Shown here piece after piece: positions 15,988-62,546 of a stretch of 64,000 nt of DNA. The position numbers were made by a program, and so were the translations under genes. The notes beneath the pieces are model-generated. The model did not search any database, was not told the origin of the DNA, and saw nothing but the letters and a program-made list of their open reading frames with translations. Numbering within the stretch: position 1 is the first letter of the stretch; every line of letters begins with the position of its first letter. The DNA comes from Nitrospirota bacterium (lineage in GTDB: Bacteria > Nitrospirota > UBA9217): assembly GCA_043731355.1 (NCBI GenBank), contig JAYTJE010000028.1:13261-77260 (forward strand), given 5' to 3'.

Positions 15988-16160
15988 GGTGGGGGGTATG
16001 GTATACTAATCAAACGAAGAGCGCAAGGGCCGGAGCCTGGAGCGCGAGAATGCCGCGAATCCTCCTTGACAAAGCCCCCCATGGTTTACTACAATGCCGC
16101 ACCGAAGAACAAAAATCACTGTATGTATATGGGGTATCCTGCCATGTGGACAACTCAATA

Positions 16161-25719: not shown

Positions 25720-26124
25720 ATGATTGGCCAGGGAGTCAGAACAGCCGTGCTTGCGCTTGTTGTTATTCTGCTTACCGGCGTGGCCTATGAGCGGAACACT
25801 GCGTGGCACACGCTTTTGACCCTTTGGCTGGATGTGGCAGCCAAATCCCCCGGAAAGTCCCGGGTCTTTAACAACCTGGGGAATTGCTACATTCTTGAAG
25901 GCAAGTATTTTAAGGGAATCGAAGCATACCAGCGGGCAGTGGCTTTGGACCGCAATAACATCGAGGCGTACTACAACCTCGGCGTCAATTACGAAAATGT
26001 GGGCATCACCAATCGGGCTGTATATTATTATGATCTGTTCTGCAAGACCGCGCCGGCTTCATACCGGGAGCAGACGGAGCAGGCCTGTAAGCGCGTTGCC
26101 GACCTGACCCGCGGCGTGCGGTAA
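25720..26124 (+). CDS. Small TM + TPR protein, homologous to the C-terminal module of the TMTC-like proteins
   Basis: 134 aa; N-terminal TM helix, then the W..L.LW.D.A.KSPGK.R...NLGN motif shared with 27959, 28699 and the C-termini of 16161, 58772 and 60841. Confidence 0.6.
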   Translation: MIGQGVRTAVLALVVILLTGVAYERNTAWHTLLTLWLDVAAKSPGKSRVFNNLGNCYILEGKYFKGIEAYQRAVALDRNNIEAYYNLGVNYENVGITNRAVYYYDLFCKTAPASYREQTEQACKRVADLTRGVR

Positions 26125-26183
26125 GCACGGTCACACGAATCTTAAAATTGGTTGCGGCCTTAAGGCCGTTCCAGGAGTCCGCC

Positions 26184-26726
26184 ATGAAGATTTTTTTTCA
26201 TATATGCTGCGCTCCCTGCGCTCTGTACCCCTATTACCGCATGAAGGAGGAGGGCATCGAACCGGCCGGTTTTTTTTATAATCCTAATATCCATCCCTAT
26301 CTGGAATACAAAAAACGGCTCGATACGGTGAAGGAATTCTCCGGCAGGGTCGGCCTTGAGGTAGTCTACCGGGATGATTATGACCTTGATGAGTTTCTCG
26401 TCCGGGCTTCCGGCAAGGGGCCGGGGCGCTGCGAGCAGTGCTACCGCATGAGGCTCGAGGCCGCCGCAGCCGCGGCCCGGGAGCGAGGGTTTTCGGCGAT
26501 GACCACGTCGCTTCTCTACAGTAAATTTCAGAAACATGATCTGATCACGGGCATTGGAAGAGAAATGGCGGCGGAGCACGGGATCGAGTTCTATTACGAA
26601 GACTTTCGGCGCGGTTGGCGGGAGGGCATCGTGGAATCAAAGGCCATGGGGCTTTACCGGCAGCAGTATTGCGGCTGCATTTACAGCGAACGGGACCGCT
26701 ATAGAAAAACAGACGCGAACGAGTAA
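26184..26726 (+). CDS. queH: Epoxyqueuosine reductase QueH (DUF208)
   Basis: HICCAPC motif plus downstream CEQCY and CGC cysteines; start at MKIFFHICC, with an AGGAG RBS 6 nt upstream. Confidence 0.8.
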   Translation: MKIFFHICCAPCALYPYYRMKEEGIEPAGFFYNPNIHPYLEYKKRLDTVKEFSGRVGLEVVYRDDYDLDEFLVRASGKGPGRCEQCYRMRLEAAAAAARERGFSAMTTSLLYSKFQKHDLITGIGREMAAEHGIEFYYEDFRRGWREGIVESKAMGLYRQQYCGCIYSERDRYRKTDANE

Positions 26727-26779
26727 AGGCGGTTTTAGACCCGCCCCTGCCAACGTGCCTTGAAAATAAACGTATATCC

Positions 26780-27898
26780 GTGCATAACGAACGAGGCATG
26801 CTTAAAAACTATTTATTCCTCTCCATCATCACCGCCTCAGTCCTGTCTCTGATTCCGGCGCGGGCGCTCTGTTCGGAAACCATCCGCGTGGCCATTGCCG
26901 ACAACCAGAGGAGTATTGTGCTCACGTCCCCCTCCGGGTTCGTGGTGGAGGGGCGCGCCTCTTTGGAGCGGGAGCGGACGATGACGATTGGTGCGTCGTC
27001 AATCGGGCCCCGGCCGCTCCGGGTGCGGTCGGTGGGCGCTTTCATCCGCGTGAACAAAAAAAACTTCCGGGGCTGGGTGGAACTGCGAAAAAAAAAGAAT
27101 GGCCTTCTTCTGGTTGTCAATGAACTGGATATTGAGCTCTATCTGCTGGGGGTGGTTGCCTCCGAGATTCCCCAGGACTGGCATCGTGAGGCGCTGAAAG
27201 CCCAGGCCGTGGCCGCGCGGACCTATGCGTTGTATCAAAAGCGGATGGCGGAGGGCAGGTCCTACCATGTGCTTGCCACGGTGGACAGTCAAATGTATAA
27301 CGGCAGGAGCGGTGAACGGCCCGCCACCTCACAGGCGGTGCAAGAGACGGCGGGGCAGGTCATTGTGTACAACGGGGAGCTGGTCCCCGCTTTTTATCAT
27401 TCGAGCTGCGGCGGACATACGGAAGACGCATCAAAACTGTGGGACGTCAGGGAACCTTACCTTCAGGGTGTAGACTGCGATTGTCAGAATATATCAAAAT
27501 ACGGCCAGTGGGAGCGGCGGTTCAGTGTTGACACGGTCGCCCATGCGCTTCGCAAGCGCGGCTACCCTGTCAGGCATATCACCGCCGTGACCCTAGGCGC
27601 CATCACACCCGCCGGCAGGGTGAAGGACGTGGCCCTCCGATATGGCGGAGGCATCTCGGTGGTCCCCGCCGAAGCGCTCCGCGCTGCTGTCGGGAATGCG
27701 CTGCTCCCCAGTGTGTTCTTCGAACTGGAGCTGTCGCCGACGGGCGGAGAACTGGTGTTCTCCGGCAGGGGGATGGGGCATGGTGTTGGGTTGTGCCAGT
27801 GGGGCGCTGAAGAAATGGCGCGGCGGAAATTCGGTTACCAGGCGATCCTCGGTCACTACTACCCAGGAACAGGTCTCGCTGCCATGGAAGAGCTGTGA
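26780..27898 (+). CDS. SpoIID/LytB domain protein
   Basis: 372 aa; signal peptide, then AQAVAARTYALYQ and YHSSCGGHTED motifs typical of SpoIID/LytB. Confidence 0.8.
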   Translation: MHNERGMLKNYLFLSIITASVLSLIPARALCSETIRVAIADNQRSIVLTSPSGFVVEGRASLERERTMTIGASSIGPRPLRVRSVGAFIRVNKKNFRGWVELRKKKNGLLLVVNELDIELYLLGVVASEIPQDWHREALKAQAVAARTYALYQKRMAEGRSYHVLATVDSQMYNGRSGERPATSQAVQETAGQVIVYNGELVPAFYHSSCGGHTEDASKLWDVREPYLQGVDCDCQNISKYGQWERRFSVDTVAHALRKRGYPVRHITAVTLGAITPAGRVKDVALRYGGGISVVPAEALRAAVGNALLPSVFFELELSPTGGELVFSGRGMGHGVGLCQWGAEEMARRKFGYQAILGHYYPGTGLAAMEEL

Positions 27899-27958
27899 CC
27901 GCTGCCTGGCGCGTCACGGTCTTGACCTCATCTCACTCAGCGGTGCAAACAATTTCTC

Positions 27959-28690
27959 ATGATGAAAACCGCATTCAAGAATAGTCTCGTGGCGTTGACG
28001 GCCTGCTCGGTCATCATTGGTTACGCGGTGGTTTCGTACCGGCGAAACAGCCTCTACCAGACGCCGGTCAGGCTTTGGGTGGCAACGGCGGCGGCCTCAC
28101 CGCATAAACAGCGGCCCCACCTGAACCTCGGTCAGGCGCTCGAGGTAGCCGGGTTTCATGAACAGGCCATGCAGGAGTTCCGAACGGTCCTCTCGATCCC
28201 CAGTGATAACAGCATTGAAATGCAGAACGTATACAGGGAGATGGGCAATATTTATTTGGCGGCAGGACGCTATGGCGAGGCGTCTGCGGCGTATCGGATC
28301 GGTTTGCGCTACTCGCCGTCCAGCCCGACAATCCTGCATAACCTTGCAATCGTCCTGCTGAAACAGAAACGATTGGATGAAGCGGCTACACAGGCCGAAG
28401 CGGCACTTGCTGCCGACCCTTCGATGCCGGACGCCCTGAATACACTGGGCCAGATTTATGTATCTCAAGGCGCAATTGACAAGGGGATTGCCTGTTTGAA
28501 AGCAGCTATCGAGCAAGCGCCGGAATATGCCTCGCCCTATATGAACCTGGCACTTGCGTTTGAACGGAAAGGTGACTACGAAATAGCCTACCGGCATGCG
28601 AGGGCCTACGCAATGGCTGTTACGAGCCCTGACGGCCGCAAGAGGGCTGAAGTGCTCCTTGATCGGTTGCAAAACAAAATGCAGAAATAA
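27959..28690 (+). CDS. TM + TPR protein (detached TMTC-like C-terminal module)
   Basis: 243 aa; N-terminal TM helix, RLWVATAAASPHKQRPHLNLGQA motif, then TPRs. Confidence 0.6.
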   Translation: MMKTAFKNSLVALTACSVIIGYAVVSYRRNSLYQTPVRLWVATAAASPHKQRPHLNLGQALEVAGFHEQAMQEFRTVLSIPSDNSIEMQNVYREMGNIYLAAGRYGEASAAYRIGLRYSPSSPTILHNLAIVLLKQKRLDEAATQAEAALAADPSMPDALNTLGQIYVSQGAIDKGIACLKAAIEQAPEYASPYMNLALAFERKGDYEIAYRHARAYAMAVTSPDGRKRAEVLLDRLQNKMQK

Positions 28691-28698
28691 ACTTTCTG

Positions 28699-29382
28699 GT
28701 GGAGTTGTCTGATTTGTTAGGCCGATCATATGCGTTCCTCACGTTTTCCGCGTTACTTGTCCTGACCCTTACGGTTTCGACTGTGACGCGGAACCGCGTC
28801 TTCCGCGACAATGTCAGCCTCTGGGCGGATACTGCGGGAAAATCACCGGGGAAACAACGAACGCACCACAACTATGGCTGCGCCTTGTCCGGAGCGGACC
28901 AGTATGAGGCCGCGTTAGGTGAGTTCAGAAAAACGCTGGCCATGAAGCCTGACGGGAGCGTGCTGTTAGGATATCTCCTGACCGAGATGGGAATTTCTTA
29001 TTACAAACTTGAACAGTTTGATAAGGCCATAAGCGCCTGGCAGGAGGCGCTGCGCCGGGAACCCAACAACGCTGAACTGCTTAACGATCTGGCCATGGGG
29101 TTCCTCAAGAAAAAAAACTATGGCGAGGCCCGTCATTATGTAGAACGGGCGCTGACAAACGGTCCCTCGATGGCGGAAGCGTTTAATACGCTGGGGCAGG
29201 TCCAGCTTGCCCTGGGTGACACAGAGGCGGCAATCCGGTCCTTTCTCATTGCTCTGGAAAAAGAGCCCGAGGCGGCATCACGATACCGGGACGTTATTGA
29301 GGTATTTGAAAAAACAGGCCGCCATGCATTGGCTGCTGAGTATGCAGGCAGGGCAGCAAAGCTGGAGCAGGATGTCCGGTAG
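28699..29382 (+). CDS. TM + TPR protein (detached TMTC-like C-terminal module)
   Basis: 227 aa; GTG start; SLWADTAGKSPGKQRTHHNYGCA motif, then TPRs. Confidence 0.6.
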   Translation: MELSDLLGRSYAFLTFSALLVLTLTVSTVTRNRVFRDNVSLWADTAGKSPGKQRTHHNYGCALSGADQYEAALGEFRKTLAMKPDGSVLLGYLLTEMGISYYKLEQFDKAISAWQEALRREPNNAELLNDLAMGFLKKKNYGEARHYVERALTNGPSMAEAFNTLGQVQLALGDTEAAIRSFLIALEKEPEAASRYRDVIEVFEKTGRHALAAEYAGRAAKLEQDVR

Positions 29383-29529
29383 AAGCAGATAGAGGGAATG
29401 ACATAAAATTTGACGGGTTATTTGTATCTGTGCAAATATGAGCAAACGATGCGCGTTATCGCTCATTGTAAATGCTCTTTATAAACAGTAGATACGTAAT
29501 TATTATTGTTTATCAATTGTTTGTGGTAG

Positions 29530-29545
29530 TGGCACGGCTATTGCT
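29530..29545 (+). promoter_or_regulatory. Sigma-54 (-24/-12) promoter TGGCACggctaTTGCT upstream of the tetrahaem cytochrome operon
   Basis: Perfect TGGCAC-N5-TTGC match inside a 380-nt AT-rich noncoding leader. An IHF-like TATCAATTGTTTG sits just upstream (~29508). Coordinates approximate. Confidence 0.55.
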
Positions 29546-29763
29546 TATAAGATGAATGAAATATTGATGAATCAGGAAGGGAGGCAGCGCTGCCTGTGGC
29601 AGCAAAAATATCGTACGACCTGTTAATTCTGCATGGAGGTCGTAGCGATCTGCTTATTGTTATTTTTTAATAACGTCAGGCAGTAATAAGGTCGGGGGGA
29701 TTAAAATTTTTGTAGAGTTGTTAAATTAAAAAACGTTGTAAACTAAACCAAGGAGGAAGCAAA

Positions 29764-30420
29764 ATGAAGAGAATCATCGTAGTAACAGTAGCATTGGCAT
29801 TTGTGCTCCTGAGCGCGGGCGCGGCACTTGCCGGCATCGCGAACAGCAAGCACGACATGAGGACCTACCTGATCGGACAGACGCTCGGATACGACGAAGT
29901 CTGCGTCTATTGCCACACGCCGCACAGCTCATCGATGCAAGCTCAGCTCTGGAACCACTCAGTTTTGACCACGCCTACTTACACAGTCTACGGATCTGCG
30001 ACCATGAATGCCACGACAGGCCAGCCGGGAGCTGGATCGTTGATCTGCTTGGGCTGCCATGACGGCACCGTTGCTGTTGATGTCATGGTCAATACTCCGA
30101 ACTACGGCGTCGCAGGAACGGATAATGGCGTTCTTACTGCTACTCTCAAAATCGATCCCACAAGAGGCGCATATTTGGGCCTCGACCTCGGGAACGATCA
30201 CCCGGTCGGCTTTACCTATGATGCCACACTTGTAACCAATGACGGCTCGCTTGTTGATGCGGTGACCGTGGGCGGCAGCACCTATGTACGCATTATCGGT
30301 GGCGTCGGTGGTAAGGTGGAGTGCGCAAGCTGCCACGATGCTCACAATACTGTCACGATGCCTTTCCTGAGAAGCGCCAACGCGGGCTCGGCTCTCTGCC
30401 TGCGGTGCCATATCAAGTAA
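29764..30420 (+). CDS. Tetrahaem c-type cytochrome (secreted)
   Basis: Signal peptide; four CXXCH motifs (CVYCH, CLGCH, CASCH, CLRCH); strong AAGGAGGAAG RBS. Paralog of 46703. Confidence 0.8.
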   Translation: MKRIIVVTVALAFVLLSAGAALAGIANSKHDMRTYLIGQTLGYDEVCVYCHTPHSSSMQAQLWNHSVLTTPTYTVYGSATMNATTGQPGAGSLICLGCHDGTVAVDVMVNTPNYGVAGTDNGVLTATLKIDPTRGAYLGLDLGNDHPVGFTYDATLVTNDGSLVDAVTVGGSTYVRIIGGVGGKVECASCHDAHNTVTMPFLRSANAGSALCLRCHIK

Positions 30421-30448
30421 GCTGAGGATACGAACATAGCAGGTTCAA

Positions 30449-30477
30449 GAGGGGAGGAGACTCCCCTCTTTTTTTTT
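30449..30477 (+). terminator. Rho-independent terminator
   Basis: AGAGGGGAGgagaCTCCCCTCT hairpin followed by T9. Confidence 0.7.
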
Positions 30478-30752
30478 AAGTCTTGTCGGGTGTTTGGGTT
30501 GTTGCCGAACCAAAAAGGTTTGACTTTATAATGATGGCGTGATAACTTACCAAAACCTGCGTTGTAATAGTTATTAAATAATCACAAACCAGAGGGGCCG
30601 CTGAGATGCCGGTTGATGCGTTCGCAAAAAGTCATAATCCACCAGACGCGGAGACACTGAGAAATGCTTTTTAAATTACGAAGTTTTTCACCGCGTTCTC
30701 AGTGGTTCGATTCGACTTGTTACGAATCCATCAGATTTAAAGGGGAGTGGAA

Positions 30753-31829
30753 ATGCATAAACATAAACACGGTTTACTGATAATTCTGATACTGAGCTTG
30801 CTTTTTGGGTGCGCGACAAAAGCGCCGCAAAAACCGCTGCTCGCGTGGCCCTCATTGCCGGCTCCGCCGCGGATAGCCTATGTGGAGAGCTACCGCGGTT
30901 CGATAGATTTTTTCGTGCCCAGTTTCCTTGATGTTATCTTAGGCGCCAGCCAGTCAGTAAAAAACGACATTAACAAGCCTTTTGCCGCAGCCGCTTACGG
31001 CGACAAAATATATGTTTCCGACACAGGTTTTGGATACGTGGTCGTGATCGACACAAAAGCGCGGAAGGTGTCTTTCCTTGGGGCAAGCGGAAGGGCTGTT
31101 TTGAAAAAGCCCCTTGGTGTCGCCGCCGCCGCTGACGGAACGATCTATGTCTCCGACGGAAGCCTGAACAGTATTTACGCCTTTGACCGGAACGGCGAGC
31201 TTATGCTGGCATTTGGAAAGCCCGGTGAGTTTGCAAGGCCTGCGGGGCTTGCCGTCAACAGCGAGCTGGGACGGCTCTATGTGTGCGATGTCGCGGTAAA
31301 TGCGGTTTTTGCCTACTCTCTCAAGGGGGAACGTCTCTTTGAGTTCAAAAAAGGAGCAGAGCCTGGAGAAGGCTACTTCAATTCTCCGACCCATATTGCC
31401 ATTGACAGGAGAAATGGAAATGTCATCGTTGCTGATACGAATAATTTCAGGGTGCAGGTTTTTGACAAGGATGGCGCATACCTGAGAAAATTCGGGCAAT
31501 TGGGCGACAATCCCGGGGATTTCAGCAGGCCCAAAGGCATCGCTGTCGACTCCGAAGGCCATGTCTACGTGGCCGACGCCGCTTTTAATAATTTTCAGAT
31601 ATTCGACGACACGGGAAAACTGCTGCTGTCTATAGGAAGCATGGGACAGGGCGCCGGACAATTTATGCTGCCCGGCGGCATGTATATTGATGAACAAGAC
31701 CGGATCTATGTCGCTGATGCCCTCAACAGAAGGATCGAGGTTTTCCAGTATCTGAGCGAGGCTTGGAAGCAGTCTCATCCCGAGGAGTATAAAAAATACC
31801 TTCTACCGGAGGCGGCGGTTATTAAATGA
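30753..31829 (+). CDS. NHL-repeat lipoprotein
   Basis: Lipobox LLFGC; six repeated NHL-like units (YVSD/YVAD/YVCD ... G.F..P.GIA); AGGGGAG RBS. Confidence 0.7.
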   Translation: MHKHKHGLLIILILSLLFGCATKAPQKPLLAWPSLPAPPRIAYVESYRGSIDFFVPSFLDVILGASQSVKNDINKPFAAAAYGDKIYVSDTGFGYVVVIDTKARKVSFLGASGRAVLKKPLGVAAAADGTIYVSDGSLNSIYAFDRNGELMLAFGKPGEFARPAGLAVNSELGRLYVCDVAVNAVFAYSLKGERLFEFKKGAEPGEGYFNSPTHIAIDRRNGNVIVADTNNFRVQVFDKDGAYLRKFGQLGDNPGDFSRPKGIAVDSEGHVYVADAAFNNFQIFDDTGKLLLSIGSMGQGAGQFMLPGGMYIDEQDRIYVADALNRRIEVFQYLSEAWKQSHPEEYKKYLLPEAAVIK

Positions 31830-31873
31830 TATCCCTTAGTCCTTGTTTGTGTCTGGTCTCAAATGGGGGGCGT

Positions 31874-32812
31874 ATGATTAAATTATTGCTGTCACTCGTT
31901 ATCTTTTTTTATGCACTCCCGCTGCCTGCCGCTGAGCATGTGGTTGCCAGGGTCAACGGGGTCGTCATTTCCGCATCAGAGCTTGACGCGGCCGTAAGCC
32001 GACAGATCGCTACAGCCACCTATCACGGGTCTGTTCCTGAGGAAAGGCGCCCTGAATTTCAGGAACAAGCCCTTCAGAAACTTATTCTCCGCGAACTGCA
32101 ATATCAGGATGCCGTGTCCCAGGGAATAAAACCGGACAAAAAACTGACGAAAACGAGGATGGAGTCCATAAAAAACAAATTTAACTCTGGAAAAGAATAT
32201 AAAAAAGCATTGTCCGATGCGGGGCTTACTGAAGACGATATACGCGCGGGTGTGGAAAAGAACCTTGTTGTGGAAGAGGTGATCAATAAAACCGGTGTGG
32301 AACCGGCGCGCTGGAAGGACGCCGAACTGAAGACGTACTATGACTCGAATAGAGATAAATTCAAGCAACCGGAAAGTGTTAAACTGAGGATCATCTCGGT
32401 CGCGGCTGAAAAAAAAGCAACGGAGGCGCTGGCCCTGATAAAAGCGGGCGAGACGTTCGGAGCAATAGCGGGGAAAATGTCCGAAGACAATTACCGGACC
32501 ACGGGAGGCGACCTCGGATATATTCACCGGGGCAGGATTTATCCTGAGCTGGAGCGCGAAGCTTTTGCGATGAGACCCGGAGAAGTGAGCAATCCGGTAC
32601 GCGCTGAGGGCATGTGGTTCATCATTAAAGTAGAAGAGAAAAAACCAGAGCAGCTGATCACCTTTGAGGAAACAAAGGACAAGCTCAGAAAAGAGTTAGA
32701 GGCAAAGCGCTCCGCTGAGTTGCTCGAAAAATGGAACCAGGAGCTCAGGGTAAAGGCAAAAATAGAAATTTTACTTGATGGTAACGAAAAGAATCCGCAA
32801 GTGTCACCCTGA
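31874..32812 (+). CDS. PpiC-type peptidyl-prolyl cis-trans isomerase (SurA/PrsA-like periplasmic chaperone)
   Basis: Signal peptide, SurA-N-like region, parvulin domain (GGDLGYIHRG..). Confidence 0.7.
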   Translation: MIKLLLSLVIFFYALPLPAAEHVVARVNGVVISASELDAAVSRQIATATYHGSVPEERRPEFQEQALQKLILRELQYQDAVSQGIKPDKKLTKTRMESIKNKFNSGKEYKKALSDAGLTEDDIRAGVEKNLVVEEVINKTGVEPARWKDAELKTYYDSNRDKFKQPESVKLRIISVAAEKKATEALALIKAGETFGAIAGKMSEDNYRTTGGDLGYIHRGRIYPELEREAFAMRPGEVSNPVRAEGMWFIIKVEEKKPEQLITFEETKDKLRKELEAKRSAELLEKWNQELRVKAKIEILLDGNEKNPQVSP

Positions 32813-32879
32813 CAAAACTCTGGCAGTTACCACGGAAAAGGCCACGGAGTATCACGGATACAAGTAAGAGATGAGTTCG

Positions 32880-33005
32880 TAAAAAGTCTTAAAAGCCGTC
32901 TTTGCGAGCGAAGCGAAGCAATCTCGTAGTTCGTATCTGCCTGATAAATCGAGATTGCCGCGTCGCTCCGCTCCTCGCAATGACGGCCTAAAAGACTTCT
33001 TACGA
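32880..33005. repeat. Large imperfect palindrome in the intergenic region (~45-bp arms)
   Basis: AAAGTCTTAAAAGCCGTCTTTGCGAGCGAAGCGAAGCAATCTCG ... CGAGATTGCCGCGTCGCTCCGCTCCTCGCAATGACGGCCTAAAAGACTT. Candidate structured RNA or MITE-like element. Confidence 0.35.
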
Positions 33006-33194
33006 GACCATCATCAATAATAATGGACACACATCAGTACTCCCCTGCGGAAGTTTTCCCACCTTGATACCCCCCCGACTCAATGCTTCGTGCAGTAATA
33101 CTCAATAGTGAGCGATTACGCGCATTGAGCGACATTTCTTCAATAAAAACAATAATAACTGTTTGAAATAATTGATTAATTAAGTTGTGGTTAT

Positions 33195-33210
33195 GGGCAC
33201 GAAAATTGCT
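33195..33210 (+). promoter_or_regulatory. Sigma-54-like promoter gGGCACgaaaaTTGCT upstream of the beta-barrel gene
   Basis: GG-N10-GC spacing is correct and the -12 TTGC is intact; ~35 nt before the GTG start. Coordinates approximate. Confidence 0.45.
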
Positions 33211-33244
33211 TACATATTAATTGCAGAAATACTATGCCTGATGT

Positions 33245-35185
33245 GTGAAAGCTATTCACTTGCGCAAAATTTTATATAAAATATTTTACTTATCAATACT
33301 TACCGTGCTTATATCCTGCCCAGGGCGCGCTGAGGCTTATCGCGTTTCAGGCGTGGTTGCATTTACCTACAATGCCGATGAGCATCGTTCGGGGAATGTG
33401 CGCTCTTCTTCGCATTCATTCTCCCAGCAGTATAGCGCCAATTTGCAAAGCTTTTTCTGGGACCCGCGGTTTCTCCGGTATAATGCTGGTGTTACCTATA
33501 ACATTACCTCAGTCTCATCGTCCTCATCGTCGGAAAACATTGGATTAAATTATGATCTTAATATGCGGTTTTTTCCCGGCATGATGGTATCCTGGGACCT
33601 TTACGACAGGCAGTCCACCAGCAAGATTTCGTCCGATAACAATATCGCAGGTTATGATTTAAACACGAATTCATACGGTGGTTCTTTGCAGCTTAATCTC
33701 AGCCGCCGGGATGGTGGACGTAGAGGGAACAACAATAATGTCAACAACAACAATAGCAACAATAACAACAACAGTTATAACTATAATAATAATAATAACA
33801 AAAGCGGAAGTCTGATCAATTTCCGCCTTCCTGATATTGGACTTTCCTACGGGCATGTTGAGTCTGATTCAGCGGGTGCGCTCAATCCGATCAATGAATC
33901 GCGCGACAACGTCGGCCTGACGCTGGCATACCGCATTAATGCGAGGGCTGACCTGAATATGGGCCAGACCGATGAAACCTACAAAAACTTCATCACCGGC
34001 GGAAACTATGAAACGAAGTCCACGACGGTTGCATCGAAAATCCTTGTGTCCCCTGAGGCCGACCTGAATCTGAGCGGCAGCCTGACAGACCGGACAACCT
34101 CTGGCTTTGCCGGATTCGGCCGTAATGATACCGCATGGTATTCCACCGCGGCGCTTAATTTTAAAGAACGTGACGGAATACGGCACAGCTACACCTATAG
34201 CTACAACAAATCGCAGTCGGACTTTGCGGAAATGACGGGCCACAATGCCGCCGCCAATGTATCGTACCAGCTTAATCGCGACCTCTCCTTGCGTGGGGGC
34301 CTCCATTATACTCTTGCGGAGTATATTATCACGTCGCCAACGGCAACCGTTCCGCAGGAAAAACAGAGCATGGAGTCAGGCGGCGCGCAGACCGGGGTGG
34401 CTTACCGAAAGCTGTATACCCCCGAATTCCTCGGGCTCTTCGCAATGAATACGGATTATAACTTCAATACGGGCTTCGTGGATATTTCGTCAACCCAGAT
34501 AGATAAGGCCGCGGGGAGCGGTTGGTATTATGAGAATGCCGCGGCCCTCGGGTTGACGAGCATAGGATGGAAAAAAGACAGCGTGGCGACGAGTTATAAT
34601 GTTTCCAGCAGGAGAGACCACTCGCCTCTTACGAACAACGTCCGGTCTCAGGGGCTCAGACTCGATGCTTCCACGGTCCGTATTCCTCAGACGACCTTTA
34701 GAGCGAATGCTTCCTATACCGTTACCGAGAGCAGCGCGAGCAATTATAGCGTCTTCTTGAATAACGCTCAGAATAATTCGAGCATCGGCAATCGGGCGCT
34801 TTTCTACGGTGTATCAGCAGTGTATACGGCCACGCCTTCCCTTACCTTTGATGCAGGCGCTTCGCAAGGACGTTCCTCGAATTCAACGCCGTCACTCTCC
34901 ACTTTGCAGCCGAATGTGCAAGCGCCAATCGAGCAGGCGATGTATTTCGGGGCCCACTATGGAAAGGCCCTTACCCGGAACGTGATGTTCCGGGCCAATG
35001 CCCGTGATGAATACCGCAAATCCTTCCGTGCGAAAACGGAAACACGCGATATAGATGCGGGTCTTGACTATCGCATCAGGCAGGTCCTGATGAATTTTAC
35101 CTACCGCTGGAACGAGAGATTGCCTGAAGCGGGCCTGAATACGTACCAGCAGAGTTATATGGTGAAGCTGTCGAGGCCGTTTTAA
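33245..35185 (+). CDS. Large outer-membrane beta-barrel protein (porin-like) with internal poly-Asn low-complexity tract
   Basis: Signal peptide; S/T/N/Y/G-rich alternating amphipathic pattern; C-terminal ...KLSRPF (terminal Phe); 646 aa; N-rich tract at aa ~160-185. Confidence 0.5.
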   Translation: MKAIHLRKILYKIFYLSILTVLISCPGRAEAYRVSGVVAFTYNADEHRSGNVRSSSHSFSQQYSANLQSFFWDPRFLRYNAGVTYNITSVSSSSSSENIGLNYDLNMRFFPGMMVSWDLYDRQSTSKISSDNNIAGYDLNTNSYGGSLQLNLSRRDGGRRGNNNNVNNNNSNNNNNSYNYNNNNNKSGSLINFRLPDIGLSYGHVESDSAGALNPINESRDNVGLTLAYRINARADLNMGQTDETYKNFITGGNYETKSTTVASKILVSPEADLNLSGSLTDRTTSGFAGFGRNDTAWYSTAALNFKERDGIRHSYTYSYNKSQSDFAEMTGHNAAANVSYQLNRDLSLRGGLHYTLAEYIITSPTATVPQEKQSMESGGAQTGVAYRKLYTPEFLGLFAMNTDYNFNTGFVDISSTQIDKAAGSGWYYENAAALGLTSIGWKKDSVATSYNVSSRRDHSPLTNNVRSQGLRLDASTVRIPQTTFRANASYTVTESSASNYSVFLNNAQNNSSIGNRALFYGVSAVYTATPSLTFDAGASQGRSSNSTPSLSTLQPNVQAPIEQAMYFGAHYGKALTRNVMFRANARDEYRKSFRAKTETRDIDAGLDYRIRQVLMNFTYRWNERLPEAGLNTYQQSYMVKLSRPF

Positions 35186-35444
35186 TAAAAGTTTATCATT
35201 TCTCCGTCAGCCTTCCGCATAAGGTCCCCCTGAGCAGTCAAGGTGTCCTCCGGTCAACGCACAGAAGCCGCAGAAAAGAGCATGAATGCGCTCACCAATC
35301 TCAACATGCAAGAAAATTTACCACGAAGAACACGAAGCGCGCGAAGTTAAAATAAATACTTTGATTTTGTCTTTTTCAATTTTTTCGTGATCTTCGTGGT
35401 GAAAAGGCTTTTTGGTCCCGGCTTGTCCGGGTTAGGATAAACAG

Positions 35445-36203
35445 ATGATTCTCGGGAAAAGACTCATTGTGGTAATGCCCGCGTATAATGCGGAAAAAAC
35501 GCTCCGGCAGACCTATGCGGAGCTCCCTCATGAGTATGTTGATGAGGTCATCCTGGTGGATGACGCGTCCCGGGACCATACGGCCTCCGTTGCGCAGGAG
35601 CTCGGCATCACCACGATCGTGCATGCCGAGAACAGAGGCTACGGCGCAAACCAGAAGACCTGTTACCGGGAGGCGCTGAGGCTCGGCGCCGACATTGTGG
35701 TGATGGTCCACCCCGATTATCAGTATTCTCCGCGGCTCGTAACGGCCATGGCTTCCATGATCACGTCGGGGCATTATGACGTTGTGCTGGGGTCGAGGAT
35801 TCTTTGCGGAGGGACCTGGCGGGGGGGGATGCCCTTCTATAAATACATTGCCAATCGCTTTCTCACGTTGATAGAGAACCAGATGCTTGGAGTAAAATTA
35901 TCCGAGTTCCATACCGGCTACCGGGCATTCAACCGGGAGGCGCTTCTTGCGCTGCCTTTGGAGGAGAATTCAAACGATTTTGTTTTTGACAACGAGATGC
36001 TTGCACAGGCGGTATACCAGGGCTTCCGCATCGGCGAGATAAGCTGTCCCACAAAATATTTTGACGATGCCTCCTCGATCTCGTTCATGCGCAGCGTCCG
36101 CTATGGTTTCGGTGTTCTGGCGACGTCGCTGAAATTTGTTCTTCAGAAACTCGGCCTCGCACACTTTGCCCTGTTCAGCGGCCGCCGTAGGGGAGGGTGG
36201 TAA
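35445..36203 (+). CDS. GT2 glycosyltransferase, polyprenyl-phosphate mannose/glucose synthase (Dpm1-like)
   Basis: [12 protein letters not shown]...[12 protein letters not shown] and the DxD-like DADM region. Confidence 0.75.
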
Positions 36204-36267
36204 ACCCGCCTCTCCATTGTTATCTCCGTGATATTCAGTGGCTTTTTCCGTGGTAAATAACGTAAGT

Positions 36268-37392
36268 TCAGCTGAAAGTAACGCAATTTCTGCCGTTTTC
36301 TTTCGAGCGATAGAGGGCTTCATCCGCTTTTTTGATGAGAGCCTCGGGTGTGATAACGTCTTTGCCGCTGATGCAGGCGACGCCCAGGCTTACCGTTACC
36401 TTGATATCGGAGGACCGGCTTCTGATGCTGAACGGATGGCGCTCAACTGCGTCGCGGATGCGCTCGGCCGTCGCCGCGGCATTGAGCTGTGTCAGACCCG
36501 GCATAATGATCGTGAATTCCTCTCCGCCGTAGCGGCAGCAGATATCCGTGGCCACGCGGCGGCATTGCAGCGTAAGAAGCTGAGACAGCTCTTTCAGGAC
36601 CGTGTCTCCGGCCTGGTGACCGAAGTTGTCATTGAATTGCTTAAAGTGGTCTATATCGAGCATAATGAGGGTGAGTGGTTCGGGAGTGCGGTCGCGACGC
36701 GCCAGTTCCTGCCTGAGCCGCTCTTGAAAAACCCGGTGGTTGTAAAGGCCCGTGAGTCCGTCATGCTGGGAAAGATGTTCGATCGTTTCGAAGAGGTGGG
36801 CTTTTTCTATGCCTGCTGCGATCTGGTGGGACAAAATTGCCATGAAGTCCATGTCATCCACAGTGAGACCGTATTTTTTCGGGTGGTCGATGCCGATCAC
36901 GCCGATGGTCGTATCGCGGACTTTCAGCGCCGTGCCGATATAGGATCCGGCCCTTTTTTCTTCGCCCGGAACATGGATAAAATCATCCATGGTCTCGTAA
37001 AAAAGCCCCAGATCGTGGATTTGTATGTGCTCGCCGCTCTCAACGATTTTTCCCGGTGTGCCCTGCCCCGGTTGCAGGGAGAGCGGGCCTTCGACGCTTA
37101 GTCCGCGGGAGTAGGACAGCTCCAGGTTTTCTCGCGGGTCATCGAGCAGATAGACCGAGACGCGGTCAAAAAGAATTGCCCCTTTGATGCTGTCAAAGAT
37201 GCCGCGGAGCATCTCGCGCTTGTCCACCTGGGAGGAAATGGCGAGGGAAACATGGTACTGGACATACATCTCGTTCAGCTTCTTTTCGAGCAGGAGACCC
37301 AGGGCGTCGGTCTGCGCTTTCGCCTGCGCAAGCTCTTCTTCGAGCCTGGTGACCTTTTCCGGCAATTGCTCTACTCTTTGTTCATCAGGCAT
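36268..37392 (-). CDS. GAF domain-containing diguanylate cyclase (GGDEF)
   Basis: N-terminal coiled coil, GAF domain, GGDEF domain with RYGGEEF active-site motif. Confidence 0.85.
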   Translation of the reverse strand: MPDEQRVEQLPEKVTRLEEELAQAKAQTDALGLLLEKKLNEMYVQYHVSLAISSQVDKREMLRGIFDSIKGAILFDRVSVYLLDDPRENLELSYSRGLSVEGPLSLQPGQGTPGKIVESGEHIQIHDLGLFYETMDDFIHVPGEEKRAGSYIGTALKVRDTTIGVIGIDHPKKYGLTVDDMDFMAILSHQIAAGIEKAHLFETIEHLSQHDGLTGLYNHRVFQERLRQELARRDRTPEPLTLIMLDIDHFKQFNDNFGHQAGDTVLKELSQLLTLQCRRVATDICCRYGGEEFTIIMPGLTQLNAAATAERIRDAVERHPFSIRSRSSDIKVTVSLGVACISGKDVITPEALIKKADEALYRSKENGRNCVTFS

Positions 37393-41875: not shown

Positions 41876-42051
41876 GAACCGAGCATTCCCCCTGTCCGTG
41901 TCACCAAAGAGGCGATCAAATTCCCCTCAAGCCGTCTGCGCAAATCAAAAAACACTGGCTGTAAGATAGCCGAGAAACCTCTTGTTTGTCAAGAGAATTA
42001 ATCATAGCCGGAACTTGCTTTTGCTGCGTCTTTTTGGTATTCTGCCGTACG

Positions 42052-44238
42052 ATGAACAGCGGACAAAACCATCAGCAGACCGGGTTCAAGGGCGTGCTTT
42101 ACCTTCTGGCGTTCATGCTCCTGACCGCAGGCGCCATCGCTTTACAACTCAAATACCGTGGGTTTGAAGGCCCCCTCTCGGACAGCCTTCTCATTATCGT
42201 TCTGATCAATGCCAATTTCCTGCTCCTGGCGGCGGTCATCGTCATGATCGCCCGCAGTCTCTGGAAACTGTCCATCGAGAGGAAACAGCGGGTGTTGGGG
42301 GCGCGGTTCAGGACCAAACTGGTGACCGCTTTTGTCAGCCTGTCCTTCATTCCGCCTGTTTTGCTGTTCATCATCGGAAGCGGCATGTTTACCAGCAGCA
42401 TTGAGCGTCTTTTTAACCTCCGGGTAGAGAACTCGCTCAAAGCCTCCCGTTCCGTGGCCCAGGCATATTACGAGCTCCTCGGAAACAAGGCGCTTGTCTT
42501 CGGCAGGGAGCTCAGCAGGCAGATGACCGAGGAGCAGCTGTTGAACCGCTTTGAACAGCCGGTGCTCAAGGAGTATCTGGCCCGAAAAGCGGTCGAGTAT
42601 GACCTTGACGGCTTAGAACTTATTACCGTCCCCCGTGAACGTGCGGTTACGATCGTTACGGCGCACTTTCCGGATAAAACCTTCAGGGCTACCTCATCCG
42701 AGTTTGCTGAACGGGCAGTATCCGGCGGGGTGGTGTCCGGCATTATTGAACTGGGGAAACGGGGACAGATCGTACGCGCCGTGGTCCCGCTCCATGCTTC
42801 CGCCGCGGACCGGAAGGTGACAGCGCTGATCAGCATCAGCTACTATGTCCCCCAGAACCTGGCGTCAAAAGCGGCCGAGATCAACACCGGGTATGCGCAA
42901 TACCGGGCTTCGCAGGCAGAAAAGGAACCGATCAAGCTGGCCTACCGGCTTGGGTTTCTCGCGGTAACCCTGTCGCTGCTGCTCGCCGCCATCTGGGTGG
43001 CGCTCCGCGTGGCAGCGGGTATTACCGTGCCTATCCAGAAGCTTGCCGAAGGGACGGCTGCTGTAGCAGCCGGCAGGTTCGATTATCGCATTGACGAAGC
43101 GCCGGGTGACGAGATCGGGGTGCTGATCGCTTCTTTCAATAACATGACGAACGATCTGAAGCATTCTCGTGAGCGTCTGGAACAGGAGGTCGCTTACAAG
43201 GAAACGATCCTTTCAAACATTGATACGGGTGTTGTTTCCCTGGACCGTGCCGGCAGGATCACCACCATCAATCGGGCGGCCACGGACATTCTGAGCGTTC
43301 GAGCCCAGGACGTGCTTTTCAAACGCTACGATGAGGCGTTCGTCTTTATTGAACTCGGCCCGGTACGCACGTTGTTCCGCAAACTTGAGGAAGGGACGGG
43401 CCAGGCGGAGGAAGAACTGTCGCTGACCGTGCGCGGCAGGGTCCTGACGCTCCGGATGCGGGTCACGACGCTGCGGGACAGCGGAGGGGCGCTGTCCGGA
43501 TCGGTCATCACGTTTGACGATCTGACGGAGCTGCTCAAGGCGAAAAAAGCGGAGACCTGGCAGGATGTGGCGCGCAGGATCGCCCACGAATTCAAGAATC
43601 CGCTTACTCCCATCAAACTCTCGGCCGAACGTCTGAGAAAAAAACACGCTGAGGGCGCCGCGGATTTTGATGCGGTCTTCGATGAATGCAGCCGCACCAT
43701 CGTGCAGGAAGCGGACGGCCTGCGAAAGCTGGTCGATGAGTTCGCGAACTTTGCCCGGATGCCGAGTTCAAATCCCGTACCGCAGCCGCTCCACCTGGTC
43801 CTGGAGAGCGTCATACCTCTTTATGCGGGAGCGCATAAGGACATTTTGTTCGTGCGTCAGTATCAGGCCGGCCTGCCCGAGGTGCTGCTGGACCGGGAGC
43901 AGGTGAAGCGGGTGTTCATCAACCTGTTCGAGAATGCTGTTGAGGCCATGGGCGGCAAGGGCACGATCTGGGTCACCACGGCCATGAACGCAGCCGGCAG
44001 GGTGCGCGTGGAGGTGGCGGACAGCGGGCCCGGCATAGCGCCCGGCGATGTCCCGCGTGTGTTCGAACCGGATTTCTCCCGCAAGAAAAAAAACGGGGGC
44101 CTGGGGCTGGCCATCGTGCACAAGATCATCGCCGACCACGGCGGCTCGATCCGCTTTGAGAAAAACGCGCCAACGGGTGCGCGCTTTATTATAGAGTTCG
44201 CGGCGGTGGCCGGGAACACGGAAGTTCAGAGTTCATAG
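42052..44238 (+). CDS. NtrY-like sensor histidine kinase (TM-HAMP-PAS-HisKA-HATPase)
   Basis: NtrY-type N-terminal 4-TM region, HAMP, PAS, H-box HEFKNPLTPI, and N/G1/G2 boxes. No cognate response regulator adjacent. Confidence 0.8.
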   Translation: MNSGQNHQQTGFKGVLYLLAFMLLTAGAIALQLKYRGFEGPLSDSLLIIVLINANFLLLAAVIVMIARSLWKLSIERKQRVLGARFRTKLVTAFVSLSFIPPVLLFIIGSGMFTSSIERLFNLRVENSLKASRSVAQAYYELLGNKALVFGRELSRQMTEEQLLNRFEQPVLKEYLARKAVEYDLDGLELITVPRERAVTIVTAHFPDKTFRATSSEFAERAVSGGVVSGIIELGKRGQIVRAVVPLHASAADRKVTALISISYYVPQNLASKAAEINTGYAQYRASQAEKEPIKLAYRLGFLAVTLSLLLAAIWVALRVAAGITVPIQKLAEGTAAVAAGRFDYRIDEAPGDEIGVLIASFNNMTNDLKHSRERLEQEVAYKETILSNIDTGVVSLDRAGRITTINRAATDILSVRAQDVLFKRYDEAFVFIELGPVRTLFRKLEEGTGQAEEELSLTVRGRVLTLRMRVTTLRDSGGALSGSVITFDDLTELLKAKKAETWQDVARRIAHEFKNPLTPIKLSAERLRKKHAEGAADFDAVFDECSRTIVQEADGLRKLVDEFANFARMPSSNPVPQPLHLVLESVIPLYAGAHKDILFVRQYQAGLPEVLLDREQVKRVFINLFENAVEAMGGKGTIWVTTAMNAAGRVRVEVADSGPGIAPGDVPRVFEPDFSRKKKNGGLGLAIVHKIIADHGGSIRFEKNAPTGARFIIEFAAVAGNTEVQSS

Positions 44239-46599: not shown

Positions 46600-46615
46600 T
46601 GGTATGCGTATTGCA
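46600..46615 (+). promoter_or_regulatory. Sigma-54-like promoter TGGTATgcgtaTTGCA upstream of the second tetrahaem cytochrome operon
   Basis: GG-N10-GC spacing and the TTGCA -12 element, in a 270-nt AT-rich leader; paralogous position to the 29530 promoter. Coordinates approximate. Confidence 0.45.
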
Positions 46616-46702
46616 TTATACGCTGCGATAGATATGCTATAAGAAATAGTTGTTAGTTGGGTAATGCTGATTAACTAATTGAATTCATTGAGGATATGCT
46701 AA

Positions 46703-47470: not shown

Positions 47471-47512
47471 TTAATGATATAATTGATTTTTATGGCTATC
47501 TCGGAGGTGAGT

Positions 47513-50251: not shown

Positions 50252-50280
50252 TGCGCATAATGCACGAAGGAGCGGCGACT

Positions 50281-52494: not shown

Positions 52495-52505
52495 GGAGGA
52501 TGACA

Positions 52506-56480: not shown

Positions 56481-56508
56481 ACGATACCCGCATCACACCT
56501 GTTGAGTT

Positions 56509-56538
56509 AGCCCCGCCCTTTCGGGCGGGGTTTTTGTT
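56509..56538 (+). terminator. Rho-independent terminator after the mega-cytochrome gene
   Basis: GCCCCGCCC-tttc-GGGCGGGG hairpin followed by TTTTTGTTT. Confidence 0.7.
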
Positions 56539-56561
56539 TGGCATTGTAAACAAGGAGTGAA

Positions 56562-58034: not shown

Positions 58035-58058
58035 AATGCCGAAGGTTTCATCCGCACA

Positions 58059-62544: not shown

Positions 62545-62546
62545 TT

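Follow-up and report, generated by a model that had tools for sequence, protein, structure and literature searches.

The locus at positions 29764–35185 of the 64,000-nucleotide stretch of Nitrospirota DNA analysed here (the window) is probably an OmcE-type cytochrome nanowire biogenesis cluster, whose barrel is divergent and which includes a SurA-like prolyl isomerase. Its four open reading frames, all on the + strand, encode a tetrahaem cytochrome (29764–30420; 218 aa, four CxxCH motifs, Sec signal peptide with the cleavage site between AALA and GIANSKHD) that is a putative OmcE-family nanowire subunit, an NHL-repeat lipoprotein with a six-bladed beta-propeller (30747–31829; 360 aa, lipobox LLFG/C), a periplasmic peptidyl-prolyl isomerase (PPIase) of SurA-N and PpiC architecture (31826–32812; 328 aa) and an outer-membrane beta-barrel (33245–35185; 646 aa, signal peptide, C-terminal motif SRPF). 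All four genes were confirmed where a preliminary description of this DNA had located them. Six further Nitrospirota loci (L001–L006) show the arrangement cytochrome–NHL–PPIase–barrel, at 34–55% amino-acid identity and despite varying flanking genes, so the clustering is not due to chance, which bears out that description. It had also correctly recognised an envelope module with a large outer-membrane barrel at its centre and a function in extracellular electron transfer, of which NHL propellers are an integral part, and its porin–cytochrome idea pointed in the right direction while naming the wrong family. Together, OmcE, a beta-propeller lipoprotein and a large barrel are known from an earlier report as the omcE nanowire cluster, also for Nitrospirota (bioRxiv 10.1101/2025.10.22.684050).

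Cytochrome, propeller lipoprotein and prolyl isomerase

By sequence comparison, the 218-aa protein is homologous over its whole length to the two OmcE subunits with solved filament structures (phmmer matches to 9YUQ, 1e-32, and 7TFS, 1.6e-29), at an identity of only about 32–34%. The four CxxCH motifs and the histidines H30, H54, H146 and H194 were found to be invariant in 70 homologues, both solved filament subunits included, and the distal haem-ligand histidines are all kept in this cytochrome (4/4). In the solved OmcE filament, one distal histidine reportedly reaches over the subunit interface to ligate a haem (PMC12307469). Additionally, the AF2 model of the cytochrome (pLDDT 82) gave 7TFS as its sole PDB match (E 8e-11, TM 0.60/0.64). 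The protein is a putative nanowire subunit for which filament formation is predicted, and this homology speaks against the earlier interpretation of it as a small periplasmic cytochrome.

The NHL lipoprotein (Pfam NHL, 1.5e-32, plus DUF5128) is, on alignment, clearly homologous to the propeller whose gene adjoins omcE in Geobacter, sharing 39% identity over 325 aa (E 1e-65) with that of G. sulfurreducens and 48% with the propeller in locus L012. The isomerase (Pfam Rotamase_2, 1.2e-22; SurA_N_3, 7.6e-13) has an open reading frame that overlaps the NHL stop codon by 4 nt, its true start being likely the Met at 31874, ahead of the signal peptide. Its gene lies between the NHL and barrel genes in 6/6 Nitrospirota loci (L001–L006), and no such gene was found within 8–10 kb of omcE in four Desulfuromonadales-type loci.

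In the literature, omcE clusters are defined by OmcE, one or more beta-propeller lipoproteins and a large barrel with a proposed role in secretion or anchoring, with homologues reported in Nitrospirota (bioRxiv 10.1101/2025.10.22.684050), and this role of the barrel is a hypothesis, not a demonstrated mechanism for OmcE. The reference clusters, in the GSU0615–0619 region of Geobacter sulfurreducens and in Desulfuromonas soudanensis (filaments PDB 7TFS, 9YUQ), share with the present locus a tetrahaem subunit of the same family with every haem ligand conserved, the homologous NHL/DUF5128 propeller lipoprotein, a Pfam-less large barrel beside the subunit followed by a family-2 glycosyltransferase (GT2), TPR and glycosylation genes nearby, and a sigma-54-type motif 5′ and a strong terminator 3′ of the subunit gene. 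However, the order is subunit–NHL–PPIase–barrel here versus NHL–subunit–barrel in Geobacter, the SurA-like PPIase is an addition, the locus stands outside the purHDE/resB–ccsB neighbourhood, and the barrel is about 100 aa shorter, carries an Asn-rich insert and shows profile homology at its N-terminus only. Two adjacent multihaem cytochromes of 330–370 aa are also missing. The minimal omcE cluster in the literature comprises two extra multihaem cytochromes and two propellers (bioRxiv 10.1101/2025.10.22.684050), and the single propeller and lack of extra multihaem cytochromes here count against the nanowire reading.

Expression signals and neighbouring genes

A sigma-54-type promoter motif, TGGCACGGCTATTGCT (29530–29545, + strand), which matches TGGCAC-N5-TTGC perfectly, precedes the start codon of the cytochrome gene by 234 nt, and a second, GGGCACGAAAATTGCT (33195–33210, + strand), with one mismatch, precedes that of the barrel gene by 50 nt. 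Since the count of such motifs across the whole window was not above chance, the evidence for sigma-54 control comes from positional conservation. Equivalent motifs lie 190–270 nt upstream of the cytochrome orthologue in L001, L004 and L006, and four Desulfuromonadales-type loci have them 79–109 nt ahead of omcE. A GG-N10-GC motif matching at least 9/11 consensus positions precedes the barrel gene by 50–83 nt in 7/7 Nitrospirota loci, as is also the case in L009 and L010, and a sigma-54 activator gene is found directly upstream of the OmcE-like gene in L013. The proposal that all of these genes are sigma-54 driven is supported in this way for the cytochrome and the barrel, but not for the NHL–PPIase pair, upstream of which a TGGCAC-N5-TTGC-type motif was found in no locus. 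With no promoter found for this pair, its co-expression is inferred from synteny only.

Directly 3′ of the cytochrome gene, a strong intrinsic terminator (30447–30478, + strand) combines a 10-bp GC-rich stem with a T run, and an equivalent (dG −13 to −24 kcal/mol) is present 3′ of the OmcE-like gene in 9/9 loci examined, Nitrospirota and Desulfuromonadales-type. The palindrome noticed earlier between the PPIase and barrel genes is indeed present (32870–33012; imperfect, about 143 nt, arms of 39 nt with 79% complementarity, dG −66.4 kcal/mol, z = −9.1). A copy 88% identical occupies a different intergenic site in L006, partial copies occur in L002 and L005, no Rfam match was obtained, and the element is a dispersed REP/MITE-like repeat that is not locus-specific.

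Downstream of the barrel, a family-2 glycosyltransferase resembling polyprenyl-phosphate sugar transferases is encoded (35445–36203, + strand; 252 aa, Pfam Glycos_transf_2, 5.8e-24), its best NCBIfam similarities, AglJ and PpgS, both being under cutoff. A GT2 gene is likewise found 3′ of the barrel in L002, L005 and L006 and in Geobacter omcE clusters, and is absent in L003; it is a frequent, non-obligatory neighbour and a possible glycosylation accessory. Directly upstream of the locus, two small membrane-anchored TPR proteins are encoded (27959–29382, + strand; 243 and 227 aa, Pfam TPR). TPR genes precede the cytochrome in L004 and L006, not in L001, and are variable accessory genes. The related TPR protein encoded at 25720 is similar to the C-terminal part of the 500-aa protein in the Geobacter omcE cluster, and a GAF-GGDEF cyclase is a conserved neighbour of the locus.

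Proposed assembly and use of the wire

In the proposed mechanism, the cytochrome would be exported by Sec, receive its four haems in the periplasm and fold with the aid of the SurA-like prolyl isomerase, after which it would cross, or be anchored in, the 28-strand barrel, whose periplasmic face the outer-membrane NHL lipoprotein may organise. Outside the cell, subunits would polymerise head to tail, and since one haem per subunit would be ligated by a histidine of the neighbouring subunit, a continuous haem chain would result, able to carry electrons from or to the cell. The subunit gene would form a separate sigma-54-driven unit with a strong closing terminator, which would permit high expression, and the barrel would have its own sigma-54 promoter; expression of the NHL–PPIase pair probably depends on read-through or on a promoter that escaped recognition. 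The GT2 and TPR neighbours may glycosylate the wire.

The osc (OmcS companion) cluster of G. sulfurreducens (Shen et al. 2025, Cell Chem Biol, as cited in PMC13194489) is proposed to provide OmcS with a folding factor (OscH) and secretion components (OscEFG), and a "porin-like pathway" has been put forward by which the wire would be mounted on the outer membrane (bioRxiv 10.1101/2025.10.22.684050; PMC13194489). In concept, the PPIase, propeller and barrel described here would fill the same three roles beside a nanowire cytochrome, but the osc subunit is the hexahaem OmcS, not OmcE. OscH is reportedly a prolyl isomerase and OscG a porin. A prolyl isomerase is also encoded with the nanowire cytochrome in the omcZ operon (OmcZ, OzpA protease, prolyl isomerase), and it was demonstrated experimentally to be needed for OmcZ nanowire expression (bioRxiv 10.64898/2026.07.18.739370). 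However, OmcZ is an octahaem subunit of another family that needs proteolytic maturation, an OzpA-like protease is not encoded here, and no barrel was reported as required for OmcZ.

It is possible, if rather unlikely, that the wire serves electron uptake, with Fe(II) minerals or partner cells among the conceivable sources, or else cell–cell contact and biofilm structure, and not dissimilatory metal reduction. This alternative concerns physiology, with the same assembly machinery and unchanged gene identities. The origin of the closest loci, in Nitrospirota MAGs from groundwater and other environments, and the cyclase conserved beside the locus are consistent with such a use, as are the proposed function of OmcE bundles in cell–cell transfer and biofilm formation (bioRxiv 10.1101/2025.10.22.684050) and the induction of NHL-associated cytochrome clusters for electron uptake in Desulfovibrio ferrophilus (PMC5815863), whereas in Geobacter a link has been made between OmcE and the reduction of Fe(III) oxide (PMC12307469).

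The outer-membrane barrel and related systems

By structure prediction (AF2, pLDDT 81.3), the 646-aa protein would be a very large outer-membrane barrel of 28 strands, with short loops on both faces and without a plug domain. An Asn-rich disordered insert (residues 156–191) and the RPF terminus are common to the whole family. The barrel had no Pfam/NCBIfam match at E ≤ 10 and none to MtrB/PioB, usher, TonB-receptor or porin HMMs. Close relatives numbered only 17 in 5.8 billion clusters, and a profile search yielded 251 matches in 1.84 billion representatives. In hhalign comparisons, the close family aligned with a remote tier over its full length (100%, E 8e-65), the remote tier with the Geobacter omcE-cluster barrels (98.2%, E 5e-14), and the close family directly with the latter (92.5%, E 5e-7) over 104 N-terminal columns. 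Beta-barrels readily give spurious profile matches, BLASTP against the Geobacter barrel was not significant, and the similarity is confined to about 100–175 N-terminal columns; the link to that barrel is suggested by N-terminal profile similarity only. Remote-tier barrels adjoin NHL and OmcE-like genes in L012 and L013, and the barrel belongs to a family occurring beside such genes.

The preliminary description had instead proposed a Pcc/Mtr-type conduit, possibly a new variant, with NHL proteins in place of the outer decahaem. In such a conduit the cytochrome, as a monomer or short stack, would lie inside the barrel like MtrA in MtrB and conduct electrons over the outer membrane, with the NHL protein as a structural cap where the surface decahaem would be. 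A role in stabilising the outer-membrane cytochrome complexes of D. ferrophilus has been suggested for NHL propellers (PMC5815863). The resemblance to MtrCAB/Pcc lies in a large, short-loop, plug-less barrel, similar to a sheath barrel and encoded with c-type cytochromes for extracellular electron transfer, with 28 strands here versus 26, and MtrB (6R2Q_B, E 2e-9) is the top PDB fold match of the model. However, TM was only 0.41 at 9% identity, TonB receptors, ushers (FimD among them) and LptD scored nearly as high, and no MtrB/PioB HMM matched. Moreover, the cytochrome, its four distal ligands kept, comes from the polymerising OmcE family and has its homologues among filament subunits, not among MtrA/OmaB proteins, and both an MtrA/OmaB-type periplasmic insert of 8–10 haems and an MtrC/OmcB-type surface decahaem are absent from 29764–35185. 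A four-haem chain is, in addition, short for spanning the outer membrane. The conduit is quite improbable on these grounds, even though the two models are not fully exclusive, since a filament base seated in the barrel would be a conduit too.

An analogy to chaperone–usher pili, raised in the D. soudanensis preprint (bioRxiv 10.1101/2025.10.22.684050), extends to the periplasmic folding helper, the large barrel with FimD ushers among its fold matches, and the polymerising subunit gene with strong expression signals of its own. However, usher (PF00577) and PapD-type chaperone domains are absent here, the helper is a PpiC/SurA-type isomerase, and the barrel has 28 strands versus 24 and lacks a plug and N/C-terminal periplasmic domains. 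It is very improbable that an ordinary nutrient porin, usher or transporter and a general outer-membrane protein chaperone merely adjoin a small cytochrome gene, as the barrel's own promoter, the 433 nt with a mobile-looking repeat that part it from the PPIase gene and the generic SurA-like architecture of the PPIase might suggest, given the four-gene order kept in L001–L006, the distant barrel relatives again beside OmcE-like and NHL genes, the HMMs without a match and the one sigma-54 motif class preceding both cytochrome and barrel genes.

Read as an OmcE-type nanowire cluster, the locus is a further member of the recently described omcE nanowire system rather than a novel type of electron conduit; it would represent the Nitrospirota version of the gene set by which Geobacter-like bacteria make OmcE conductive protein wires.

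The cytochrome subunit

Locus 1 was found to contain its four open reading frames where the preliminary description had placed them, at 29764-30420, 30747-31829, 31826-32812 and 33245-35185. The first encodes a tetrahaem cytochrome of 218 aa that carries a signal peptide and has its CxxCH motifs at residues 47, 95, 187 and 212. When this protein was compared by phmmer with all PDB sequences, the sole full-length matches were two OmcE filament structures, 9YUQ (1.1e-32, residues 1-218 of 218, 16 chains) and 7TFS (1.6e-29, residues 8-218). The latter is the OmcE nanowire of Geobacter sulfurreducens, and the former seems to correspond to the OmcE bundle of Desulfuromonas soudanensis reported in bioRxiv 10.1101/2025.10.22.684050. 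By BLASTP, the cytochrome shares 34% identity with G. sulfurreducens OmcE (E 1e-36). Additionally, the four CxxCH motifs and the histidines H30, H54, H146 and H194 were invariant in an 11-sequence alignment of both solved subunits and nine others, and the same residues were invariant across 70 homologues. This is the pattern reported for OmcE homologues, in which four motifs are accompanied by four haem-ligand histidines (bioRxiv 10.1101/2025.10.22.684050). Ligation in this family is of the bis-His type, one distal histidine being reported to ligate a haem across the subunit interface, and the locus-1 cytochrome keeps all four histidines.

The AF2 model of the cytochrome (pLDDT 81.9) had 7TFS as its single PDB match (E 7.7e-11, TM 0.60/0.64, rmsd 4.7 Å), an agreement that is moderate because the model was computed without haems. 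Given the PDB matches, the invariant motifs and histidines and the match of the model to 7TFS, the protein is therefore an OmcE-family subunit. A generic periplasmic carrier of the c3/c7 type was considered for the 218-aa protein and rejected on the full-length OmcE matches, the ligand pattern and the fold match. The locus-1 cytochrome is a candidate for polymerisation into an extracellular filament.

The predicted outer-membrane barrel

The last gene of the locus (33245-35185) encodes a protein of 646 aa with a signal peptide, no Pfam family and a C-terminus ending in ...SRPF. Structure prediction, suggested in the preliminary description, supported a large barrel: the AF2 model, built with 16 family members (pLDDT 81.3, pTM 0.62), comprises a signal helix followed by 28 beta-strands with short connections on either face, and lacks a plug or periplasmic domain. 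Its sole disordered region, residues 156-191, corresponds to an Asn-rich low-complexity insert (33710-33817) with up to 19 Asn per 30 residues. Assuming the usual periplasmic N-terminus, the model places this insert probably in the periplasmic turn between strands 6 and 7. By standard barrel geometry, 28 strands would correspond to an estimated width of about 5 nm, Cα to Cα.

At word-search sensitivity just 17 relatives of the barrel were recovered, and an exhaustive profile search returned 251 matches, consisting of about 40 full-length close relatives and a remote tier of 540-740-aa proteins. All 51 close-tier barrels carry the Asn-rich insert at the same position, and remote-tier and Geobacter barrels do not have it; nearly all close-tier members end in [ST]RPF. 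In one Nitrospirota relative (L006) the barrel gene is split into ORFs of 212 and 413 aa. A profile search of PDB sequences with the barrel found nothing, the Geobacter barrel and two remote barrels matched no Pfam or NCBIfam family, and the cluster members of the remote barrels carried no informative names.

The preliminary description had proposed that locus 1 is a porin-cytochrome conduit of the Pcc/Mtr type. In fact, MtrB was the best PDB match of the barrel model in Foldseek (E 2e-9, TM 0.41, 9% identity), which lends this proposal weak support from the fold; it scored barely above the TonB receptors, with FimD ushers and LptD also close behind. Family evidence, however, did not bear out an Mtr/Pcc-like barrel, since Pfam and NCBIfam gave no match of any kind at E<=10, whether to MtrB/PioB, ushers, TonB receptors or other HMMs. 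Moreover, neither the HMMs nor the model revealed usher, plug or family-specific domains of chaperone-usher, TonB-dependent receptor or LptD proteins. In 29764-35185, neither the periplasmic 8-10-haem insert nor the outer-surface multihaem lipoprotein of Mtr/Pcc systems was found, and the sole cytochrome there is the OmcE-like tetrahaem protein. A conduit is an improbable reading, and it is not fully exclusive of a nanowire: if the barrel held the base of a filament, that base too would conduct through the membrane.

Locus 1 was compared with the Geobacter locus, which was reached by a search with the 7TFS sequence, and with three other Desulfuromonadales-type loci. The locus-1 barrel and the Geobacter barrel of 752 aa showed no significant BLASTP similarity, and single-sequence hhalign gave 9% probability. 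In profile-profile comparison, the close barrel family matched the four Geobacter-type barrels at 92.5% (E 5e-7, 104 columns), a match that covers the N-terminal part only and concerns a class of proteins, beta-barrels, prone to spurious profile matches. The remote tier matched the Geobacter-type barrels at 98.2% (E 5e-14, 174 columns) and the close tier at 100% (E 8e-65, 542 columns). Two loci of remote-tier barrels also carry OmcE-like genes: L012 has the order cytochrome, barrel, NHL (48% identical to that of the window) and two OmcE-like genes, and L013 the order histidine kinase, sigma-54 activator, OmcE-like, NHL, cytochrome and barrel. These profile matches, partial as they are, suggest a probable distant homology between the locus-1 and Geobacter omcE barrels, and the gene orders show their clear positional equivalence.

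Conserved gene order and accessory proteins

A search for related loci with the single barrel sequence returned none. A degenerate-pattern, alignment-based scan of one genome per species recovered five loci, all in Nitrospirota MAGs, and a sixth Nitrospirota locus was found on a 2.35-Mb contig; the Hainich aquifer is among the places where related MAGs originated. As determined by tblastn, the order is SpoIID, (TPR), cytochrome, NHL, PPIase, barrel, (GT2), GGDEF(-), OmpA-like(-) and aminotransferase(-), with 34-55% identity across the Nitrospirota loci for the module proteins and about 80% for the aminotransferase. Since this order is shared, the four locus-1 genes travel together, their arrangement is not due to chance, and the window can be assigned to a Nitrospirota bacterium. 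It is very unlikely that a nutrient porin has come to lie here by accident.

Some neighbours vary. In one relative, a 5.7-kb block (L001:3139-8685) separates the NHL and PPIase genes and encodes a GT2 protein, a B12-binding radical-SAM enzyme, a methyltransferase and an 820-aa TPR protein, so the module can accommodate modification genes inserted within it. A GAF-GGDEF diguanylate cyclase gene (36268-37392, minus strand) lies convergent with the barrel and GT2 genes and is conserved in L002, L003 and L005 with 57% identity, which hints at a c-di-GMP link with the wire or with biofilm formation. Three small membrane-anchored TPR paralogues precede the cytochrome gene (25720-29382), and the one beginning at 25720 is similar (E 2e-12) to the C-terminus of a 500-aa protein encoded in the Geobacter omcE cluster. 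Elsewhere in the window (16050-17732, 58772-63275), proteins of 560-690 aa with C-terminal TPRs and an unknown N-terminal part are encoded beside GT2 genes; these TPR/GT2 sets are reminiscent of the glycosylation and TPR genes reported after omcE clusters.

A second OmcE-like locus lies at 46600-58775, beginning with a sigma-54-like motif at 46600. It encodes a 255-aa tetrahaem cytochrome (46703-47470) that matches 7TFS at 1.9e-28, a 922-aa NHL+BACON+FG-GAP protein, a 748-aa cytochrome with 12 CxxCH, a PD40 lipoprotein, a GT2 protein and an ORF of about 1400 aa with an MtrC-like domain and 8 CxxCH; the 217-nt overlap of this ORF with the preceding gene indicates that its start is probably mis-set. 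The multihaem cytochromes and the NHL/FG-GAP protein of this locus are 17 kb from locus 1. As it contains no barrel gene, the second locus may share the locus-1 barrel.

The omcE cluster has been described as one in which OmcE is encoded with beta-propeller lipoproteins and with a large barrel, the latter "putatively functioning as a secretion or anchor"; GT2/4/39 and TPR genes often come next, and OmcE homologues with nearby porins were reported in five phyla, including Nitrospirota (bioRxiv 10.1101/2025.10.22.684050). All four Desulfuromonadales-type loci show two cytochromes (~335-370 and ~330-345 aa), an NHL/DUF5128 propeller (~365 aa) and OmcE, followed by a 713-765-aa protein without Pfam match, GT2, a ~500-aa (TPR) protein and more glycosyltransferases. 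Locus 1 shares with the omcE cluster a propeller lipoprotein and a large barrel accompanying the subunit. However, the minimal omcE cluster has two extra multihaem cytochromes and two propellers, whereas locus 1 has a single propeller and, besides the subunit, no cytochrome; it also lacks the 15-70 glycosylation genes that, with the extra cytochromes, are found in the Geobacter cluster.

The single propeller (30747-31829) is a lipoprotein of 360 aa with the lipobox LLFG|C and Pfam matches to NHL (1.5e-32) and DUF5128 (3e-24), and over 325 aa it shares 39% identity with the propeller of the G. sulfurreducens omcE cluster (E 1e-65). The next gene (31826-32812) has a 4-nt overlap with the propeller stop codon; its product is a SurA_N + PpiC isomerase, in which an internal Met precedes a signal peptide. 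This SurA-like PPIase gene sits between the NHL and barrel genes in every Nitrospirota locus; none was found within 8-10 kb of omcE in the four Desulfuromonadales-type loci. Isomerases recur in other nanowire operons, namely osc, the OmcS companion cluster (GSU2492-2504 region), in which OscH is a proposed folding factor (PMC13194489), and the omcZ operon, whose prolyl isomerase proved necessary for the expression of OmcZ nanowires in Shewanella (bioRxiv 10.64898/2026.07.18.739370). Therefore, the Nitrospirota cluster pairs an OmcE-type subunit with an accessory known from the OmcS and OmcZ systems. The roles ascribed here to the NHL lipoprotein, the PPIase and GT2 at locus 1 are putative.

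Expression signals and the proposed export pathway

The motif TGGCAC-N5-TTGC occurs perfectly at 29530 and with one mismatch at 33195, and its window-wide count is not above chance. Among the Nitrospirota loci, it was found with at least 10/11 consensus positions 190-270 nt 5' of the cytochrome gene in all four that include that region, and with at least 9/11 positions 50-83 nt 5' of the barrel gene in 7/7. Similar motifs lie 79-109 nt 5' of omcE in every one of the four Desulfuromonadales-type loci and 5' of the barrel in two of them. Overall, of the 10 loci including the upstream region, 9 have a sigma-54-like motif ahead of the OmcE-like gene, L013 being the exception, and none precedes the NHL-PPIase pair in any locus. 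The earlier view that all genes were sigma-54 driven was therefore two-thirds right, holding for the cytochrome and the barrel, where the motifs are positionally conserved, but not for NHL-PPIase. No sigma-54 activator (enhancer-binding protein) was found among the scanned ORFs of the 64-kb window, and no mention of GSU0617-0619 was found in the main text of the 2009 paper on the G. sulfurreducens RpoN regulon. An NtrY-like sensor kinase (HAMP-PAS-HisKA-HATPase, 41986-44238) is encoded between the two cytochrome loci, and no response regulator lies next to it.

Directly 3' of the OmcE-like gene, a GC-rich hairpin followed by a T-run (dG -13 to -24 kcal/mol) was present in 9/9 loci from two phyla (the window, L001, L004, L006, L007, L009, L010, L011 and L013); in the window, this strong intrinsic terminator lies at 30447-30478. 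As with pilin genes, a major filament subunit would be expected to have a gene that is monocistronic and strongly terminated, beside less expressed accessory genes.

The palindrome noted earlier between the PPIase and barrel genes is present (32870-33012, dG -66 kcal/mol, z = -9). A 144-nt copy, 88% identical, was found between two TPR genes in L006:4136-4279, with partial copies in L002:6398-6491 and L005:13153-13243, and Rfam gave no match to it and nothing credible across 29300-35500. A specific regulatory role was rejected because relatives carry near-identical copies at unrelated intergenic sites, and the palindrome is best seen as a dispersed repeat of the REP/MITE-like kind that was inserted between the PPIase and barrel genes, rather than a locus-specific element. 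A 30-nt motif, TACCACGGAAAAGGCCACGGAGTATCACGG, occurs at 32828-32857 (+) and, inverted and with 3 mismatches, at 36226-36255 (-), the pair flanking the palindrome, barrel and GT2 segment; a similar pattern, CCACGAAG…CACGAAG / CTTCGTGG, was observed at 35321-35400.

The best-supported reading, and a likely one, is that locus 1 is a nanowire biogenesis module, as suggested by the homologous subunit and propeller, the architecture predicted for the barrel, and the conservation of both synteny and signals. In such a module, the cytochrome would be exported by Sec and then receive its haems, its folding would be aided by the PPIase, and it would pass through, or anchor in, the barrel of 28 strands, which the NHL lipoprotein would organise, before its subunits would polymerise head-to-tail outside the cell; polymerisation and the route through the barrel are putative parts of this scheme. 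More tentatively, a distinct Nitrospirota branch of nanowire barrels and a dedicated SurA-like prolyl isomerase could together form a chaperone-usher-like pathway for the export and polymerisation of folded haem proteins under a sigma-54 programme. This branch might be marked by 28 strands, no plug, an Asn-rich insert predicted to face the periplasm and the [ST]RPF terminus, and its programme could conceivably involve sigma-54 promoters before the subunit and barrel and a terminator after the subunit, shared from Nitrospirota to Geobacter. If this were true, the four-gene set would represent the smallest self-contained cassette for cytochrome-wire secretion.

Locus 1 is no new type of system, which is already known, including in Nitrospirota (bioRxiv 10.1101/2025.10.22.684050). 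Specific to it are the compact composition, the dedicated PPIase, the divergent family of Asn-insert barrels and the documented cross-phylum sigma-54/terminator architecture. For the field's question of how cytochrome nanowires traverse the outer membrane and polymerise, this compact cluster, which has the subunit and a single propeller, prolyl isomerase and barrel in a phylum different from that of Geobacter, offers a useful comparison and might serve as a minimal cassette in heterologous reconstitution, for which the cross-phylum sigma-54 motif of subunit and barrel, the post-subunit terminator and the family-specific Asn-rich barrel insert offer experimental handles. [quoted passage not shown]
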